Positions 6,563-13,834 of a stretch of 30,493 nucleotides of DNA are shown here, piece after piece (position 1 is the stretch's first letter; every line of letters starts with the position of its first letter). The DNA comes from Flavobacteriaceae bacterium (GTDB taxonomy: Bacteria > Bacteroidota > Bacteroidia > Flavobacteriales > Flavobacteriaceae), in the NCBI GenBank assembly GCA_027065775.1, contig JAMONN010000062.1:1-30493 (forward strand). Reading direction: 5' to 3'. Under the pieces are notes generated by a model, which made no database searches, had not been told where the DNA came from, and was given only the letters and a program-made list of their open reading frames with translations. Both the position numbers and the translations under genes were made by a program.

Positions 6563-8143
6563 TTACAAGGTATAAAAAAGTTCTAAGACATCAATATTTT
6601 GTTGCTTGTTTTTAGAATGAAATTTCTGTAAAGTAGCGTTATCAATCAATTGAATGCCGCCAATACGAATGTGACAATTAAAAATACTACTATTTTTAAC
6701 CAATAAACCGATTTCATTTTGTGTGAATTTCTTGTTATGAGAGGATAAAATAATATCTAACCTATTTGTTTCAGTAGCTTCTTTTAAATGTATTTTTATT
6801 GAAAATCCTTTACTGTCTGTTTTTTGAAACCAGTTTTTTGTAATTAATCCTTCATTTGATTTCTTGTAAAAAACACTTTTTTCTAATTTGATTTTAGGAT
6901 TTAAAACTTTTAAAATGTTCAGAAAGTTATTATTAAATAAAATACTTTCTATTTTAGGAATTTCATCAAATAAATCAGTAATAAACTCCATTTTAGGAGT
7001 TTGAATTTTAAAATAAGCATTTAATAACTGATTCATTTTCTTAATCTCTCGCAAACTAAAAACCTGATTCAAAATTGCAGAACCTTTATATTTTAGTTTA
7101 TTAGACATATCTATTAATCCTTTTTCTGAAATTTCGGTTTGATAAGATTCTGTCGCATACTTTAAGCGCTGTTTGATTTTTCTTTTTAAAAAAGGTGGCG
7201 AAATTACCCGAATGCCATCACCTAAACCTAAAATCTCTTTTTCTAATTCAAAATTATGTTGCACATTTAAAGAAATAGTAATGCCAAAATTGTCTTTTTT
7301 AATCAGTTTTTGCGAAGCGTGAAAAGGTTTAGTTTGGACATAAGGCGCATGTTTATTATAAACAAAAAGTATGATTTCTTCGGTTTTTAAATCCGGATTT
7401 ATAGAAACGCCAATCGCCTTACTAAAATAATGTTCTAAGTCATATTTACTGTTGTATTTAAACTCAATTTCACTTTCTTGTAAGTCAATAATTCGATCTA
7501 AAGCTAAATTTACCAAATGCTCTTGCCCGTCTCTAATACCAATAACAAACCAACGATTTCTAAATTCTTTTAGTAGATAAGCATGAAAGTCAAAAGTTGC
7601 CGCTTGTCTTGCTTTAAAGGATTTGTAGGTTATTTTAATTGCTTTTTTAGTAATTATTGTTTGGTACAATGTGTCTAAAAAATTTAATCCTTTTAAGTTT
7701 TCATTCTTTTCAAATTCAATTACTGGTTTGGTTCTTGTCTGATTAGAATATACATGATCTTCCAATTTTTGAATAACACCATTTAAAGCATCAAAATGCG
7801 AAAAACCTTTAAATTGTTTTAAAAACGCAACGGATTCCGACAGTTTTTCTAAATCTTGACTACTAATTGGTAGATTGGTAATGCTATATTTTTCTTCTTC
7901 GTAGGTATAATATTTACGATCAACTACAATAATTGGTGCGTTGTAACCTAATTTGTCACTTCGCATATTTTGAATATCTAATTGAACAGTCCGTTTACTT
8001 ACATTACAATCTTTTCCTTCGTATTCGTATAAAGCGTCTGAACATTCTTCTATTAAATCGTCTAAAGTCCATTTTCTAAACCTGTTTTGCAAACATTTAT
8101 CAATGGTTTTATATCTAATTAATGCGTTTTTATTTAGTGCCAT
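6563..8143 (-). CDS. WYL-domain transcriptional regulator (HTH-WYL-WCX) with an extra ~190-aa C-terminal domain of unknown function
   Basis: The N-terminus MALNKNALIRYKTIDKCLQNRFRKWTLDDLIEECSDALYEY is the hallmark HTH start of Bacteroidetes WYL regulators. A WYL-like core (HAYLLKEFRNRWFVIGIRDGQEHLVNL) and a WCX-like segment (GLGDGIRVISPPFLKRKIKQRL) follow. At 526 aa it is much longer than typical ~320-aa members. Confidence 0.7.
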   Translation of the reverse strand: MALNKNALIRYKTIDKCLQNRFRKWTLDDLIEECSDALYEYEGKDCNVSKRTVQLDIQNMRSDKLGYNAPIIVVDRKYYTYEEEKYSITNLPISSQDLEKLSESVAFLKQFKGFSHFDALNGVIQKLEDHVYSNQTRTKPVIEFEKNENLKGLNFLDTLYQTIITKKAIKITYKSFKARQAATFDFHAYLLKEFRNRWFVIGIRDGQEHLVNLALDRIIDLQESEIEFKYNSKYDLEHYFSKAIGVSINPDLKTEEIILFVYNKHAPYVQTKPFHASQKLIKKDNFGITISLNVQHNFELEKEILGLGDGIRVISPPFLKRKIKQRLKYATESYQTEISEKGLIDMSNKLKYKGSAILNQVFSLREIKKMNQLLNAYFKIQTPKMEFITDLFDEIPKIESILFNNNFLNILKVLNPKIKLEKSVFYKKSNEGLITKNWFQKTDSKGFSIKIHLKEATETNRLDIILSSHNKKFTQNEIGLLVKNSSIFNCHIRIGGIQLIDNATLQKFHSKNKQQNIDVLELFYTL

Positions 8144-8233
8144 TTAAAAATTTTGCAAGTATTTATTGTATATTTATTTTGATTATCAGCAGTTTAACTG
8201 AATAGCACTTCAAAAATAAGTAATATTTTTTTA

Positions 8234-8254
8234 TTGCGCAAAAAGATTGCGTAC
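8234..8254. promoter_or_regulatory. operator-like inverted repeat TTGCGCAA-aaaga-TTGCGTAc, copy 1
   Basis: Lies in the divergent WYL / RtcB-like intergenic region. A near-identical site (TTACGCAA-aaaga-TTGCGTAA) recurs at 11943-11963 with conserved flanks. Confidence 0.45.
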
Positions 8255-8293: not shown

Positions 8294-9796
<1,503 letters not shown>

Positions 9797-9802
9797 TTTT
9801 AT

Positions 9803-9832
9803 ACCTGTTAATTAATTTAGCAGGTTTTTTTA
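9803..9832. terminator. intrinsic terminator between the convergent RtcB-like and toxin genes
   Basis: acctg / ttaattaatttag / caggt followed by ttttttt. Confidence 0.55.
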
Positions 9833-10120
9833 TTCCATTATTTTATTTGGATGTTGACTTGTATTAAAAACACGCATAATATAAATGATATCATCAGTAA
9901 TAAAATAAACCATTTTGAAACTCCATTTCACAATAAATCGAATATTATCATTATTAAAACTAGGCTCTTTTGGGTAAGCAAACGGAAAAATTTTAAGAGA
10001 ATTTGGTAACTCTAATAATGTATTTAAAACTTTAATTGCATTTTGAGGACTTTGTTTAGCAATATAACTTACATTATTATTTAAATCTTGATGTGCTTTT
10101 TTATCCCAAATTATTTTCAT
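9830..10120 (-). CDS. type II toxin, RelE/ParE family
   Basis: 96 aa. IIWDKKAHQDL ... IRFIVKWSFKMVYFITDDIIYIMRVFNTSQHP matches the RelE/ParE fold pattern. It overlaps the upstream small gene by 20 nt, as is classic for toxin-antitoxin operons. Confidence 0.65.
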   Translation of the reverse strand: MKIIWDKKAHQDLNNNVSYIAKQSPQNAIKVLNTLLELPNSLKIFPFAYPKEPSFNNDNIRFIVKWSFKMVYFITDDIIYIMRVFNTSQHPNKIME

Positions 10121-10355
10121 TCAAAATATTATTTCTAACTTCTTTGGTAGTATATAAAGTTGCTGTTCCGTTTTTTATTGCCATAATACTTTTATTCATT
10201 TCTTTAATATATTGACTTTCGTAAATGGGTTTGCCTTTAGCATATCCAACAATATTCTCGCTTTCTATAAGTGTTTTCAACTTATTTAATAGCAAATCAT
10301 CAGAAATTCCTAATATTTTTTGTGCTAATGAAATTTTTAAAGTTTCAGTACTCAT
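10101..10355 (-). CDS. putative cognate antitoxin
   Basis: 84 aa. It sits upstream of and overlaps the toxin gene. It is not clearly Phd/ParD-like, so the family is unassigned. Confidence 0.45.
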   Translation of the reverse strand: MSTETLKISLAQKILGISDDLLLNKLKTLIESENIVGYAKGKPIYESQYIKEMNKSIMAIKNGTATLYTTKEVRNNILNENNLG

Positions 10356-10403
10356 AACTATTCTTCAATTTTTATAAATGCAATATACAATAATAATTTT
10401 ATT

Positions 10404-10613
10404 ACATTTGCAAAAAATTACACAGTAATTCAATAATGAAAACAATATTAACACAAAGCAGCTTACTACACGGAAATTATCCGTGTGTTCGTTTTTCGAA
10501 TAGTTTCGAAAAAGGCAGATGCTTTGTGCTTAAAAAACGACAGATTTAATAAAATTTTTCTGTAAATAATATAAAAACACAAAGCATTCAATTAAATTGG
10601 ATGCTTTTTTTTG
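10404..10613 (+). ncRNA. candidate small RNA (~190 nt) with its own -7 box and an intrinsic terminator
   Basis: A TAcaTTTG box lies at 10404-10411. There is no ORF. Long-range complementarity links cacaaagca (10452-10460) with tgctttgtg (10519-10527). Internal hairpins include acacggaaattatccgtgt. The terminator is agcat / tcaattaaattgg / atgct followed by T8 at ~10578-10613. Confidence 0.3.
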
Positions 10614-10919
10614 GTCTAAATAGTAATAAAATAGTAGAAATAACGATAAAAAATTCCGAATCAAGTTCGGAATGACAATAATAAACAATAAATTTAAAAA
10701 TATTCTAAAAATTAAAAATAACTAAAATAAAATCTTGAACATAAAACCAATTGAGAGACAGACAGTTGAAAAAATGTAAAAATTCGCTAAAATGCGAAGA
10801 GGAAATCTATTGCCTAAATTTAATTTAACTGTTTGATTATCAATAAAATAAATTAATTTTTTCTTGTTTAGTAATATAATTTGTCTTTATATTTGCACCG
10901 GAAATAATTTATAAAAAAA

Positions 10920-11027
10920 ATGAAACAATTTAATTTACATATAGAACTGCCGAGTTTATCATTACAACGATTTTATAGTTGTGAAGAATCGCAAATAAAA
11001 GATATTGGAGAATGTTTATTAGAATAA
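10920..11027 (+). CDS. 35-aa small ORF (MKQFNLHIELPSLSLQRFYSCEESQIKDIGECLLE) with its own promoter and terminator; alternatively a non-coding sRNA
   Basis: A -7 box TAtaTTTG lies at 10888-10895 and the ATG at 10920. The TAA stop is followed by the terminator gcatctc / ctaacc / gagatgc plus a T-run (11051-11079). Confidence 0.25.
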   Translation: MKQFNLHIELPSLSLQRFYSCEESQIKDIGECLLE

Positions 11028-11092
11028 CTATGTAAAATACATATTTATAAAAGCATCTCCTAACCGAGATGCTTTTTTTATGCAATTAATTT

Positions 11093-11179
11093 GGAAGAGC
11101 AAGCCAATTGGTGGTGGCCGCAGTTTTGAACATTGTTAGGAGATAATGACTCGTGTGGGTTCGATTCCCACTTCTTCCG
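11093..11179 (+). tRNA. tRNA-like gene with a long variable arm (class II-like) and a defective anticodon stem; possible pseudo-tRNA
   Basis: The acceptor pair GGAAGAG / TTCTTCC, the D-stem GCCA / TGGC and the T-arm GTGGG-TTCGATT-CCCAC are intact. No 5-bp stem with a 7-nt loop can be drawn around ...cgcagttttgaacattg.... Coordinates are approximate to within 1 nt. Confidence 0.35.
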
Positions 11180-11189
11180 CAAAAAAAAT

Positions 11190-11276
11190 GGAGAGTAGGC
11201 AAATATTGGTTTGTTGCGCTTGTTTGCTAAACAAGTCTATGTAAAAGTAGTGAAGGTTCGATTCCTTTATTCTCCG
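11190..11276 (+). tRNA. tRNA-Ser (anticodon GCT)
   Basis: Acceptor GGAGAGT / ATTCTCC, D-stem GCAA / TTGC, anticodon stem CTTGT / ACAAG with loop ttGCTaa, a 16-nt variable arm and T-arm GAAGG-TTCGATT-CCTTT. It is AT-rich. Confidence 0.8.
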
Positions 11277-11288
11277 CAATTAAATTAA

Positions 11289-11371
11289 GGAAATGTTGAG
11301 CAATTGGTTGGCTCACCTGACTGTAAATCAGGTCTGTAAAAAGCATGTAGGTTCAAATCCTACCATTTCCA
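11289..11371 (+). tRNA. tRNA-Tyr (anticodon GTA)
   Basis: Acceptor GGAAATG / CATTTCC, D-stem GAGC / GCTC, anticodon stem CCTGA / TCAGG with loop ctGTAaa, a long variable arm, T-arm GTAGG-TTCAAAT-CCTAC and discriminator A. Confidence 0.85.
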
Positions 11372-11435
11372 CAAAGCACTGAAATAATTCAACTGTCTCT
11401 TGAGTTGTTTGTTTTAAATAATAATCAGTGCTAAA

Positions 11436-11507
11436 TCTGAGAAGATAACGTTGGTAGTTTACTCGCCTTGGACGCGAGAGGTTGCAAGTTCGATTCTTGC
11501 TTCTCAG
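11436..11507 (+). tRNA. tRNA-Pro (anticodon TGG)
   Basis: C1:G72 acceptor CTGAGAA / TTCTCAG (typical for bacterial tRNA-Pro), anticodon stem CTCGC / GCGAG with loop ctTGGac, T-arm GCAAG-TTCGATT-CTTGC and discriminator A. Confidence 0.75.
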
Positions 11508-11512
11508 ACAAA

Positions 11513-11585
11513 TGTTCCGTTAGTATAATGGTTAGTACGCTTGACTTTCTATCAAGATATAAGAGTTCGATTCTCTTACGGAATA
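11513..11585 (+). tRNA. tRNA-Glu (anticodon TTC), unusually AT-rich (~34% GC), with G1·U72 and a pyrimidine at position 37
   Basis: Acceptor GTTCCGT / ACGGAAT, D-stem GTAT / GTAC, anticodon stem CTTGA / TCAAG with loop ctTTCta and T-arm AAGAG-TTCGATT-CTCTT. Confidence 0.65.
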
Positions 11586-11590
11586 CAAAT

Positions 11591-11663
11591 GCAGCAATGG
11601 CGGAATGGTATACGCGTTGGTTTTAGAAACCAAATTTTGAAAGTTCGAGTCTTTCTTGCTGTA
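11591..11663 (+). tRNA. non-canonical class-I tRNA with anticodon TAG (a Leu anticodon but no long variable arm), with G1·U72
   Basis: Acceptor GCAGCAA / TTGCTGT, D-stem GCG / CGC, anticodon stem TTGGT / ACCAA with loop ttTAGaa, a 5-nt variable loop, T-arm GAAAG-TTCGAGT-CTTTC and discriminator A. Confidence 0.55.
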
Positions 11664-11668
11664 CAAAT

Positions 11669-11748
11669 TGACTTGTGATGTAATGGTTAGATATAAGAAT
11701 TTGACTCTTATTATAGAGGTTCTTCCAAATTTCGGACTTTCAAGTCAA
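11669..11748 (+). tRNA. tRNA-Gln-like (anticodon TTG, U1:A72 as in bacterial tRNA-Gln) with an aberrant, enlarged T-arm region; possible pseudogene or structural variant
   Basis: Acceptor TGACTTG / CAAGTCA, anticodon stem TAAGA / TCTTA with loop atTTGac. There are 30 nt between the anticodon arm and the 3' acceptor strand instead of ~22, and no canonical TTCGA T-loop (ggttcttcc instead). Confidence 0.4.
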
Positions 11749-11755
11749 TAAATAT

Positions 11756-11830
11756 GGTGTTATTGTTGAAACTGGTTTATCATAGAAGGTTGTGAACTTT
11801 CCGTTACGAGTTCGAGTCTCGTATAACACC
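11756..11830 (+). tRNA. tRNA-His (anticodon GTG), with the encoded G-1
   Basis: G-1 is followed by acceptor GTGTTAT / ATAACAC and discriminator C73. Anticodon stem GAAGG / CTTTC with loop ttGTGaa and T-arm ACGAG-TTCGAGT-CTCGT. Confidence 0.8.
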
Positions 11831-11942
11831 CAAAATAGAAATATAGTTTAATTAGATAAAACCTTGGTTTACGACATCAAAAATGCGAGTTCTCCCGAAG
11901 TTTCGGGATTGCTATTTCTACAAAAAATAAAAATAATTTTTA

Positions 11943-11963
11943 TTACGCAAAAAGATTGCGTAA
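11943..11963. promoter_or_regulatory. operator-like perfect inverted repeat TTACGCAA-aaaga-TTGCGTAA, copy 2
   Basis: Perfect 8-bp arms with a 5-bp spacer. The flanks (aataatttttatta...) match copy 1 at 8225-8254. Confidence 0.45.
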
Positions 11964-12006
11964 CAGATTAAGTTATTTGTATCATAATTAAATACAACTA
12001 GTAATT

Positions 12007-12036
12007 CTCTGATGTTTAGTGGATGAAACATCAGAG
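12007..12036 (+). promoter_or_regulatory. conserved leader hairpin, copy 2 (perfect 11-bp stem)
   Basis: ctctgatgttt / agtggatg / aaacatcagag. It lies at the same 44-45 nt distance from the palindrome as copy 1. Confidence 0.45.
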
Positions 12037-12238
12037 ATTGTTTGATAATTAATAAGTTCTTTAAAATATAATTTCAATTTGGTTTGAAATGTAAAATTTT
12101 TCCGTTAAAACGGAAAACAAGGTAGAAAAAAGTAATTAGAAAACCTGATACGTGTTTCTGAATAGCACTATGGTATTGTACTTAATAAGTAACAATATGC
12201 CGTTTCGGTTATTTTTGTTTTACCACACCTTGTAGGTC

Positions 12239-12404
12239 GAAGGTTCGATTCCTTCTCTAGTTTATTCTAGATAGTTCAGCGGTTAGAACAACAAGTTGCT
12301 TGTTACAGGTTCGAGTCCTGTTTCCAATACTTAACAATATTTGTTGGAATAACTCAATTGGTAGAGTAGCACTACACTTTCAATGTAGGTTCGAAGAAGA
12401 TCAC
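12239..12404 (+). pseudogene. cluster of degenerate tRNA remnants (T-arms and D-arms without functional acceptor or anticodon stems)
   Basis: (a) 12239-12255, gaaggttcgattccttc, has 16 bp identical to the tRNA-Ser T-arm at 11258-11273. (b) ~12266-12329 has a perfect D-arm (gttc-agcggtta-gaac) and T-arm (acagg-ttcgagt-cctgt), but its anticodon arm is 15 nt and the acceptor strands do not pair. (c) ~12346-12404 has a D-arm (actc-aattggta-gagt) and a truncated T-loop (ggttcgaag). Confidence 0.4.
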
Positions 12405-12736
12405 TTCTAAAAAGATCGATGAATTTAAGGTTCATTTAATGAAGTTGATTACTTCTAAAAATAATCAAAACCAAAAGAAATCTAAAACAAGTCGGTTATT
12501 ACGTTTACGCAATAACACTCTTAAAAAAACCTTGAAGTTTAAGGATTCCGTACTATTAATTAGTATTACTTTTTAAAAGAATTGTTTTGTACAACTACAA
12601 ACTTGTAGTTTTATAATTCACTTTTGTTTAATAACTAATATTAGGCAATGTTACTCAATTAAACTTCCGTATTTAAAAGAGGGTTTGTTTTAGATGTCTT
12701 TTACAAAAACGAATAATAAAATTAAATATAAATAAA

Positions 12737-13834
12737 ATGAAAAAAGTAAGAATTAACGAAGGTAAAATAGGTTTGGTTTTTAAAAACGGAAACTACAAAA
12801 GAGTATTAACTAGTGGTAACTATTGGTTATTGTTCTCTGAAAAAGTATACATATACAATTTAAGTACTGAGTTTTTTGCACCAGTAAAATTAGAATTATT
12901 GTTGCAAAATATTGATTTAGAGAATAAATTAAATATTATAGAGGTATTGGACAACGAAATTGTTTTAAAATATGAAAACAAGATTTTTAAAGGTGTTTTA
13001 AGAGCAGGTAAATATGCATTTTGGAAAAGTAAAATCAATAATTACACTTTTACAAAAGTAGATTTAAGTAAGGTTGAAATTACGGAAACTATTAGTAAAT
13101 CTGTTTTAAAAAAAGCAGAGTTATTGCAATATTTAAGAGTTTACGTTGTAGAATCTTACGAAAAAGCAATTTTGTTTTTAAATGGTAAAATACAAGAAGT
13201 TTTAAAAAGTGGTACATATTATTTTTGGAAAAACGATGTGAATATTAAAATTGAAAAAGTGGATTTAAGACAAATTCAGTTAGAAATTTCAGGTCAAGAA
13301 ATGTTAACCAAAGATAAAACCGCTTTAAGAATCAACTTTTATGCTCAATATAAAGTAGTTGATATCAATAAAGCTTTATTAGATAATAAAAATTTCGAGA
13401 AGCAATTGTATATTTTAATTCAATTAGTTTTAAGAGAATATATTAGTGCATTAACTTTAGATGAATTGTTAGAAAACAAAATAACTATTGCAAATAAAGT
13501 TTCTGATGATGTTGGCAAGAAAGCAATGACTTTAGGTGTTCAGATTTTAGATTCTGGTATTAGAGACGTTATTTTGCCTGGTGAGATTAAAGATATTATG
13601 AATCAAGTATTAATTGCTCAAAAGAAAGCACAAGCCAATGTGATTTCTAGAAGAGAAGAAACCGCAGCAACAAGAAGTTTGCTAAACACTGCAAAATTAA
13701 TGGAAGATAACGCGATGTTATTCAAATTAAAAGAAATGGAATATGTCGAAAAAATTGCAGATAAAATTGGTGAAATTACAGTTGCTGGTAGCGGAAATGT
13801 AGTGGAGCAATTAAAGACTATTTTTAGTAAGTAA
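12737..13834 (+). CDS. SPFH/band-7 (prohibitin/stomatin-like) protein with an N-terminal extension containing a repeated motif
   Basis: The C-terminal half carries the SPFH signature (GVQILDSGIRDVILPGEIKDIMNQVLIAQKKAQANVISRREETAATRSLLNTAKLMEDNA). The N-terminal ~135 aa contain three ~35-aa repeats of G.Y.FWK...KVDL. Confidence 0.75.
   Translation: MKKVRINEGKIGLVFKNGNYKRVLTSGNYWLLFSEKVYIYNLSTEFFAPVKLELLLQNIDLENKLNIIEVLDNEIVLKYENKIFKGVLRAGKYAFWKSKINNYTFTKVDLSKVEITETISKSVLKKAELLQYLRVYVVESYEKAILFLNGKIQEVLKSGTYYFWKNDVNIKIEKVDLRQIQLEISGQEMLTKDKTALRINFYAQYKVVDINKALLDNKNFEKQLYILIQLVLREYISALTLDELLENKITIANKVSDDVGKKAMTLGVQILDSGIRDVILPGEIKDIMNQVLIAQKKAQANVISRREETAATRSLLNTAKLMEDNAMLFKLKEMEYVEKIADKIGEITVAGSGNVVEQLKTIFSK

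Follow-up and report, generated by a model that had tools for sequence, protein, structure and literature searches.

An arm-less class-I tRNA-Leu(UAG) in a tRNA array near rtcB of a Flavobacteriaceae bacterium is probably a functional leucine tRNA

We have analysed a 30,493-nt stretch of DNA from a Flavobacteriaceae bacterium (assembly GCA_027065775.1, contig JAMONN010000062.1, positions 1 to 30,493 of the forward strand; the whole stretch is called the window below), and in it a gene at 11591-11663 that carries the leucine anticodon UAG but lacks the long extra arm of class-II tRNA-Leu. The gene belongs to a tRNA array in what appears to be an RNA-damage or translational-stress locus. We consider it probable that it encodes a functional elongator tRNA, most likely leucylated by the host leucyl-tRNA synthetase (LeuRS), which should have originated from an ordinary class-II tRNA-Leu by loss of the long variable arm. 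Bacterial LeuRS, in contrast to SerRS, can dispense with the arm as an identity element, and for this reason such a loss would be tolerated. The tRNA would read CUA and CUG, and possibly all CUN codons.

11591..11663, + strand: class-I (arm-less) tRNA-Leu, anticodon UAG (ARAGORN, Rfam, minimum-free-energy cloverleaf, family covariation, collinearity with class-II Leu)

This is a real tRNA gene without the long extra arm. ARAGORN reports tRNA-Leu(tag) at 11591-11664, and Rfam RF00005 matches 11591-11663 over the full length with 65.3 bits (gathering score 29, E = 2.9e-12), the top score among the tRNAs of the window, with zero non-canonical pairs flagged. In the covariance-model alignment and the manual parse, the acceptor stem GCAGCAA/UUGCUGU has 7 bp including a G1·U72 pair, followed by the discriminator A73; the D-stem GCG/CGC has 3 bp, with G13 opposite A22; the anticodon stem UUGGU/ACCAA has 5 bp and closes a 7-nt loop, UUUAGAA, which holds the anticodon UAG and A37. 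The variable loop AUUUU is 5 nt long, far from the long arm that defines class II, the T-arm reads GAAAG-UUCGAGU-CUUUC, the Levitt pair A15:U48 is present, and CCA is not encoded. The minimum-free-energy fold of the isolated RNA is the cloverleaf, at -19.1 kcal/mol. The clean cloverleaf, the 5-nt variable loop, the UAG anticodon, the TTCGAGT T-loop and the G1·U72 pair described in the initial annotation are all borne out by these results. That annotation would have given way to a better fold with a different anticodon or a long arm; neither the minimum-free-energy fold nor Rfam provides one, and no competing Rfam family or register was found on the + strand at 10000-13000, even at E <= 10. One position deviates from what is expected of bacterial tRNA-Leu: next to G36 of the anticodon there is A37 instead of G37.

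Relatives were collected with a degenerate pattern derived from the anticodon loop, variable loop and T-arm, which was run on species-representative genomes and on a viral collection (L-numbers below denote fetched related loci, L042-L161 being the viral ones). In this pattern-derived set the variable loop, the T-loop and A37/A38 are fixed by the pattern. The acceptor stem, D-arm, 5' strand of the anticodon stem and discriminator were left unconstrained, and therefore the conservation and covariation of all four are informative. The arm-less Leu(UAG) was found in 34 bacterial genome loci, mostly of Bacteroidota (Aquimarina, Crocinitomix, Flavobacterium, Tenacibaculum, Kordia, Psychroserpens, Saprospiraceae, Pedobacter) and a few of Gammaproteobacteria, and in at least 120 viral contigs. 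The 30 distinct homologues align readily, with 98.8 % of cells paired on the cloverleaf (38-58 % in slid controls), and 17 of the 20 pairs have changes on both sides, a number reached by 0 of 500 shuffles. Judged from this alignment, the family has been kept by purifying selection with compensatory changes.

By blastn, the window gene is ~85 % identical to tRNAs of T5-like Vibrio phages, which have 77 nt including CCA and therefore are class I too; in these phages a class-I Leu(UAA) accompanies the arm-less Leu(UAG). Class-I-sized Leu genes also exist in Cronobacter phage S13 and Aeromonas phage BUCT695. Together with those of the Vibrio phages VspSw_1 / vB_ValS_X1, they resemble the window gene (identity up to 85 %) in the missing arm, the variable loop AUUUU, the T-loop UUCGAGU, A37 and A73. 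The viral copies mostly have G1-C72 and CCA (115 of 117 parsable copies combine G1-C72, A73 and encoded CCA), whereas the window gene and the other Bacteroidota copies are set apart by U72 and no encoded CCA. In phage T5 itself, Leu(UAG) is class II, with a length of 85 nt. The viral loci also hold Leu genes of class-I size beyond UAG, namely 39 Leu(CAA) and 18 Leu(UAA), beside 47 class-II Leu(UAA). Plasmids and chromids carry similar sequences as well. When all E. coli genomes were searched by blastn, the 73-nt tRNA had no match, the query being too short for a database of that size. The window gene joins a widespread mobile arm-less lineage that is common to phages and bacterial L-arrays. 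The initial annotation takes every bacterial tRNA-Leu to be class II; this is right for housekeeping genes and wrong for phage- and array-borne ones, among which the arm-less form is common. As far as we have found, this family is present in public annotation and in one experimentally studied operon, and is apparently undiscussed; the missing arm is not mentioned in the main text of PMC8421152, in the tRNA-array survey PMC4758250 or in the other papers checked.

Which amino acid the tRNA accepts can be judged from its body. Over their whole length the class-I sequences can be aligned collinearly with E. coli leuW, T5 Leu1, a class-II Leu(UAG) of a Vibrio phage and a housekeeping Leu(GAG) of Flavobacterium, and the sole gap is the variable arm of 10-13 nt. 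A14, A15, G18, G19, U48 and A73 are invariant across class-I and class-II Leu in this alignment, and A14, A15, G18, G19, U48, T54, T55, C56 and A58 are invariant both here and in the family alignment; A73 is found in 36/36 distinct family members. The window tRNA, with its anticodon masked, was compared with 1753 distinct tRNAs of all isotypes from the fetched loci. Once its own family is set aside, its nearest neighbours are Leu tRNAs, of class I as well as class II, and these take each of the first four places. Its D-arm reaches 17/19 with a class-II Leu(UAA), while the score is no more than 11 for every other isotype. The window gene and E. coli leuW share the architecture of acceptor, D, anticodon and T arms, the Leu-type D-arm UGGCG(A/G)AAU(U)GGUA-ACGC, A15, U48, A73 and UAG; the window gene differs by the absent 10-13-nt arm, by A37 instead of G37 and by G1·U72 instead of G1-C72.

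These features coincide with what LeuRS is known to recognise. In E. coli, identity is determined by A73, the Levitt pair A15-U48, G18G19, A20a and tertiary D/T pairs; the enzyme needs neither the anticodon nor the long arm, and a minimal tRNA-Leu without both arms is still charged (PMC9976931). For Aquifex LeuRS, deletion of U48 abolishes charging (PMC2377443). All of these determinants are present in the window tRNA, and the predicted LeuRS identity set (A73, A14, A15:U48, G18G19, Leu-type D-arm) is intact. Animal mitochondrial tRNA-Leu, also of class I, has no long arm either, and LeuRS recognises it through the determinants A73 and A14 (PMC9976931); it is organellar, of other evolutionary origin and with reduced D/T loops, whereas the core of the window tRNA is fully canonical.

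The initial annotation had also raised the option of a recoding tRNA, which would be charged by a synthetase other than LeuRS and insert another amino acid at CUA/CUG. Its class-I shape would fit this, and the operonic Phe and Ile tRNAs of Anabaena have aberrant mobility in acid gels, though no mistranslation was found there (PMC8421152). On the tRNA itself, the determinants of the other anticodon-blind synthetases are absent, that is, no G3·U70 for Ala, and neither G73 nor a long arm for Ser; UAG is unfit for the anticodon-reading synthetases, the D-arm and the tertiary set are Leu-specific, and the leader open reading frames (ORFs) described below use CUN like other array-cognate codons. We have found nothing in support of charging by another synthetase and regard recoding as highly improbable. 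The best reading of these sequence features is a leucine-accepting tRNA. The option of an unorthodox but genuine Leu tRNA, named in the same annotation, agrees best with the collinearity, the Leu-type D-arm, the intact LeuRS identity set and the Anabaena homologues discussed below.

The gene is part of an array; neither this array nor its RtcB/WYL surroundings and leader had been seen in the initial annotation. The other members are the following.

11093..11831, + strand: tRNA array with seven intact tRNAs, Leu(UAG) included (ARAGORN, Rfam)
11093-11180, + strand: Ser(UGA)
11190-11277, + strand: Ser(GCU)
11289-11372, + strand: Tyr(GUA)
11437-11509, + strand: Pro(UGG)
11514-11586, + strand: Glu(UUC)
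11669..11748, + strand: degenerate Gln(UUG)-like tRNA with extra T-loop nucleotides, probable pseudogene or variant (local alignment)
11757-11831, + strand: His(GUG)
11837..11920, + strand: Arg(ACG)-like tRNA with a 16-nt hairpin (11893-11908) within the T-loop (alignment)

That is, seven intact and two degenerate tRNAs lie on one strand within 830 bp. The Gln(UUG)-like member scores 44.8 against the array Gln(UUG) of L017 and no more than 23.8 against any non-Gln isotype; ARAGORN does not call it, even with trial excisions, and it has no Rfam match. The Arg(ACG)-like member obtains 17.9 bits with the Rfam tRNA model and aligns with the intact Arg(ACG) of L033, L018 and L008. In the 34 genome loci, the class-I Leu(UAG) nearly always belongs to an array of 5-17 tRNAs whose order is partly conserved: Ser-Ser-Asn-Cys-Tyr-Asp-Pro-Glu-Leu(UAG)-Leu(UAA)-Arg-Gln-His-Phe. 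Tran et al. have reserved the term array unit for at least 20 tRNA genes (PMC4758250), and the maximum here is 9 in the window and 17 in the fetched relatives. The partner Leu(UAA) in these arrays is class I too, while Ser and Tyr retain their long arms, as one would expect if only tRNAs whose synthetase can spare the arm have lost it. The other array tRNAs have the discriminators that are canonical for them (C73 in His, U73 in Cys, G73 in Ser, Asp and Asn, A73 together with C1-G72 in Pro), which argues that the whole set is built for normal charging. G1·U72 was tried as a leucine-specific signal and rejected, since it recurs in the Glu, Arg and Leu(UAA) members of the arrays. A weak 1:72 pair, either G·U or A-U, is frequent among the array tRNAs for Leu, Glu, Arg, Asp, Gln and Lys, and G1·U72 is therefore a trait of the array as a whole.

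Position 37 is altered in many members. The canonical residue in E. coli is m1G37 for Leu(UAG) and Pro(UGG), m2A37 for Asp and Glu, and (ms2)i6A37 for Leu(UAA) and Phe, and a pyrimidine at this position is very unusual in any tRNA. In the arrays we observe A37 in Leu(UAG) and Pro(UGG), U37 in Asp (22/22) and Glu (17/19), and G37 in Leu(UAA) and half of the Phe genes. These changes suggest independence from host modification or nucleases, and they would fit the published idea (PMC10264068) that divergence of the anticodon loop lets mobile tRNAs evade nucleases directed at tRNAs.

Several side observations concern the structure of array members. T-loop inserts occur at a fixed place. One type is a 12-16-nt hairpin, TC(C/T)CGA...TCGGGA, in Arg(ACG), common to the window copy (11837-11920) and that of L038 (1459-1545). 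The second type is a 47-52-nt element starting ATGCTTTGCATTCAYGA, which follows TTCGAA in Aquimarina Ser, Gln, Gly and Leu(UAA) (L019/L030/L034/L041). An automatic survey of such insertions returned many artefacts (duplicated 3' ends, adjacent tRNAs merged), and only those in Ser, Gln, Gly, Leu(UAA) and Arg are credible. They may be introns (with RtcB next door), mobile insertions or signs of decay. In another arrangement, a 64-91-nt element comes after an intact Asp, Cys or Pro tRNA and precedes a duplicate of the T-arm 3' strand and the acceptor 3' strand of that tRNA (L008 3617-3753, L019 4000-4136, L033 974-1112, L008 3354-3516, L022 3317-3473, and others); in the Asp case the element carries the conserved motif GAYGAGAAGTYTATSCTGAGC...CGAAGG. 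It looks like the footprint of a T-loop insertion or an alternative 3' end. A hammerhead ribozyme was considered for this 64-90-nt element and rejected, the core CUGANGA being unmatched when checked by eye. Separately, the array Ser(UGA) tRNAs (window 11093-11180; L008 3091-3176; L033 404-490; L041 6597-6682) obtain 39.7-49.5 bits with the tRNA-Sec model, whose gathering score is 47; this model beats the general tRNA model, or its gathering score is reached, though the anticodon is UGA (Ser) and not UCA.

Ahead of the array we have observed a short ORF and a terminator.

10660..10918, + strand: predicted conserved promoter region of the leader/array unit (blastn, 68-86 % identity in ~20 loci including a gammaproteobacterium)
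10920..11027, + strand: leader ORF of 35 codons, MKQFNLHIELPSLSLQRFYSCEESQIKDIGECLLE, with many codons that the array tRNAs read (translation; equivalents in 25 loci)
11053..11079, + strand: intrinsic terminator and putative attenuator, stem 11053-11059 / 11066-11072, T-run 11073-11079 (read from the sequence, script)

The predicted promoter region contains the palindrome TTGATTATCAA at 10833-10843 and a Bacteroidetes-type -7 box, TAtaTTTG, at 10888-10895; its assignment as a promoter follows from the known Bacteroidetes consensus. Palindromes like TTGATTATCAA are also seen 5' of the leaders in L018, L019, L031 and L040, and a near copy, TTGATTATCAG, lies at ~8178-8188 in the intergenic region between the WYL gene and rtcB described below. 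In the window, the terminator, a strong one, begins 25 nt after the leader stop codon, and since only 13 nt separate its T-run from the first tRNA, there is no room for a separate array promoter. The same arrangement of ORF and terminator was found by script in 25 loci including gammaproteobacterial ones, with a gap of 24-34 nt and poorly conserved peptides (examples are L008 2822-2990, L018, L020 and L033).

The codons of these leaders are biased towards those that the array serves. For 15 non-redundant leaders with 566 codons, we counted as cognate the codons read by the array tRNAs of the same locus. There are 203 of them, where 131 are expected from local gene usage (z = 7.5) and 146 from the base composition of the leaders (z = 5.7); they make up 35.9 % of codons in frame and 24.2 % in the other two frames. 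The bias separates codons of the same amino acid: for Ser, the served AGY and UCA/UCG are at 2.6x and 2.3x and the unserved UCU/UCC at 0.35x; for Pro, the served CCA/CCG are at 1.85x and the unserved CCU/CCC at 0.67x; for Arg, the served CGU/C/A are at 2.3x and the unserved AGR at 0.98x. Cys is enriched 3x, and the isotypes that are rare in arrays are depleted (Ala 0.12x, Gly 0.34x, Val 0.5x, Trp 0). CUN codons number 31 where 15.8 are expected, CUA or CUG occurs in 11/15 leaders, and the window leader has CUG. For most loci, folds of the nascent transcript have the 5' arm of the terminator paired with the final 4-12 ORF codons.

From these observations we infer that the leader is a ribosome-stalling attenuator controlling the tRNA array. 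A ribosome that reaches the leader stop codon would mask the antiterminator, and transcription would end; a ribosome held up before that point, at codons that call for scarce or damaged tRNAs, would leave the antiterminator free, and the array would be transcribed. Like the trpL, hisL and pheL attenuators, the window has a short ORF enriched in putative regulatory codons, an intrinsic terminator at a fixed distance and a 5' arm predicted to be able to pair with the 3' part of the ORF; unlike them, its leader precedes tRNA genes and not biosynthetic enzymes, and involves ~10 isoacceptors and not one amino acid. The Rfam Phe_leader model matches the leader weakly (29.6 bits, gathering score 55), and we have found no published description of such a tRNA-array attenuator. 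A second leader-like ORF, MKTILTQSSLLHGNYPCVRFSNSFEKGRCFVLKKRQI, lies at 10436-10615, 5' of the promoter region of the main leader, and is rich in Ser/Cys/His/Gln/Arg/Tyr/Pro codons; 31 nt after it there is a terminator-like hairpin (10581-10607). The two could be a tandem or relic attenuator.

The genes around the array are as follows.

6563..8143, - strand: WYL + WCX domain protein, divergent from rtcB (Pfam; PADLOC WYL models)
8234..8254, + strand: putative inverted-repeat operator TTGCGCAAAAAGATTGCGTAC in the rtcB promoter (pattern search)
8369..9796, + strand: divergent RtcB-family RNA ligase (Pfam PF01139, E = 3.8e-35; below the NCBIfam cut-offs)
9830-10120, - strand: ParE-like toxin (Pfam PF05016, E = 2.3e-8)
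10101-10355, - strand: putative antitoxin beside the ParE-like toxin
11943..11963, + strand: second copy of the putative operator, TTACGCAAAAAGATTGCGTAA, 3' of the array and 5' of the tRNA-like RNA block and the SPFH gene (pattern search)
12228..12415, + strand: tRNA-mimic RNA block with T-arm, loop-closed acceptor-like stem and D-arm modules (conservation, predicted fold)
12737..13834, + strand: SPFH/Band-7 (slipin-like) protein (Pfam)

In most loci the arrays are flanked by RtcB/WYL and SPFH. By tblastn, RtcB is next to the arrays in 14 loci, as an orthologue 71-76 % identical or a paralogue 27-33 % identical, and its nearest homologues are in Crocinitomicaceae, Flavobacteriales and other Bacteroidota; SPFH orthologues of 48-64 % identity (tblastn) are found 3' of the arrays in 16 loci of many genera. 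The WYL/WCX protein beside rtcB, presumed to be a ligand-sensing regulator, is conserved in L020, L029, L032 and L041. The inverted repeat TT(A/G)CGCAAAAAGATTGCGTA combined with a Bacteroidetes-type -7 box has 2 hits in the window (0.18 expected), one ahead of rtcB and the other 3' of the array, and their placement suggests that both units may answer to a single regulator, presumably the neighbouring WYL protein. The stretch 11923-11995 is similar to the intergenic region between WYL and rtcB in L020 and L041, and shorter parts have matches in six more loci. PADLOC run on the flanking proteins reported no known defence system, only generic WYL models.

The RNA block at 12228-12415 is kept in at least 6 loci, from at least 6 genera, with compensatory changes in 13/39 predicted pairs. 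Membership in YrlA (RF02553) was tried and rejected, the score being 35.4 bits (gathering score 69), with no YrlA match in 18 related loci; in its modelled architecture the block is nevertheless similar to Y-RNA/YrlA. Of the window proteins that were scanned, none was identified as an orthologue of Ro/Rsr. In Salmonella, the rsr-yrlBA-rtcBA RNA repair operon combines the Y-RNA-like YrlA with RtcB under the regulator RtcR. The window likewise links RtcB to a tRNA-mimic RNA in which a loop closes the acceptor-like stem; the window RNA differs in being below the YrlA threshold, and the candidate regulator is a WYL protein and not RtcR.

Given its phage relatives, the arm-less Leu could also be a neutral relic, i.e., a remnant of a decaying phage tRNA cluster that is silent or useless in the host. 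The 85 % identity to T5-like Vibrio phage tRNAs, the at least 120 viral contigs with the family and the two degenerate array neighbours would agree with this, as would the ParE-like toxin-antitoxin module, which has been inserted between rtcB and the array and was not found in related loci. Against it, Pfam scans of the window proteins found no phage proteins; the window encodes DprA, HflX, a TolC-like protein, TsaB, PurK, ProC, CydA, a RhlE-type helicase and AlaRS, its G+C is ~29 %, and it is bacterial chromosome, in which only the tRNA has phage homologues. Moreover, the array occupies the same slot between RtcB and SPFH across many genera, every helix of the tRNA is upheld by compensatory substitutions, Leu(UAG) is the best-scoring tRNA of the window, and the Bacteroidota signature (U72, no CCA) differs from the viral one (G1-C72, CCA). 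We therefore think a relic quite unlikely.

The closest known analogue is the trn operon of Anabaena PCC 7120 (NC_003273.1:49999-52165). Its four Leu genes, UAA, GAG, UAG and CAA, are all 75-78 nt long, i.e., of class-I size, with U72 and A73, and Leu(UAG) has A37, all of which resemble the window gene. After induction, 23 of the 26 operonic tRNAs could be detected and carried an amino acid in vivo, and the ones examined were present in polysomes (PMC8421152). Because 3 tRNAs were undetected and four Leu genes are arm-less, at least one arm-less Leu is charged in vivo. The trn operon, rtcB and the slipin gene form one regulon induced by translational stress (PMC8421152) and co-repressed by TrcR (PMC10272220). 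Both systems consist of a long array of extra tRNAs of mobile origin; rtcB and slipin are co-regulated with the array in Anabaena, and rtcB and SPFH are physically adjacent to it in the window. The differences are the array size (26 tRNAs in Anabaena, 7 intact in the window), the candidate regulator (the ribbon-helix-helix repressor TrcR in Anabaena, a WYL-domain protein on the Bacteroidota chromosome) and the leader ORF with terminator, which is present in the window and not described for Anabaena. The window locus matches the cyanobacterial L-array/rtcB/slipin regulon and, by this analogy, may be switched on by translational stress, apparently by the stalling of ribosomes.

The third option of the initial annotation is a decoy for an anticodon nuclease. 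In a wider form of this explanation, the RNA is produced but its main role is not in translation: it would be a decoy or sponge that titrates tRNA-targeting nucleases (toxins, anticodon nucleases), or a damage sensor or substrate for RtcB/WYL; the Anabaena authors themselves suggest that operonic tRNAs may be sponges for toxin RNases (Santamaria-Gomez et al. 2021, PMC8421152). The non-decoding tRNA mimics at 12228-12415, the tRNAs at the locus with inserted T-loops and the non-canonical position 37 across the array would be in line with it. On the other hand, the full LeuRS identity set, the canonical discriminators, the strict 7-nt loop with its anticodon and the codon-matched leader exceed what a decoy needs, and the Anabaena operonic tRNAs are charged and enter polysomes. 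We thus judge a decoy unlikely.

Overall, we keep to the interpretation that Leu(UAG) is a functional elongator tRNA, though several points weigh against it or against the proposed control of the array. A37 replaces the near-universal G37 (m1G37) of CUN-reading tRNAs and could compromise frame maintenance. Removal of the arm mainly reduces the affinity of Aquifex LeuRS (PMC2377443), and the Anabaena study records aminoacylation of the tRNAs and not which amino acid is on the arm-less Leu (PMC8421152). The two degenerate members mean that the window array is partly decayed, and the related loci are not phylogenetically independent. The antiterminator duplex is only moderately stronger than in shuffles (mean z = -1.75, 10/23 below -2), and in the window itself, where the 5' arm pairs with ORF nucleotides -17 to -10 from the stop, it is weak (dG -6.7, z -1.2).

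The conserved locus comprises the presumed WYL regulator, the RtcB ligase, the leader, the tRNA array, the Y-RNA-like mimic and the SPFH protein, and the array would supply replacement tRNAs once the housekeeping ones are depleted or cleaved. A further idea, which we offer tentatively and do not count as probable, is that the array is a self-contained response to tRNA damage: its tRNAs would have been re-tooled to escape host modification or nucleases (the arm removed in Leu; position 37 switched in Leu, Pro, Asp, Glu and Phe), held silent by a multi-codon attenuator that senses those same isoacceptors, and co-regulated with RtcB, the Y-RNA-like mimic and SPFH. If true, this would be a new kind of attenuator, in which tRNA genes are governed by the demand for the same tRNAs, and the loss of the arm would be adaptive and not neutral, e.g., by evading a nuclease that recognises class-II tRNAs. 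Such evasion is speculative; neither the bacterial Schlafen paper nor the phage-tRNA anticodon-loop paper contains anything on class-II-specific cleavage or arm-less Leu.

The rule that bacterial tRNA-Leu is always class II thus has a large and conserved class of exceptions on mobile arrays and phages, for which we have found no paper discussing it, and these arm-less Leu tRNAs constitute a natural experiment supporting the independence of LeuRS from the arm. The association of RtcB, spare tRNAs and slipin known from cyanobacteria also exists in Bacteroidota, where it is physically linked. If confirmed, the leader logic would explain when back-up tRNAs are deployed under toxin, phage-defence or antibiotic stress, and the role of phage-type tRNAs in evading tRNA-targeting immunity would become accessible in cultured marine Bacteroidota.

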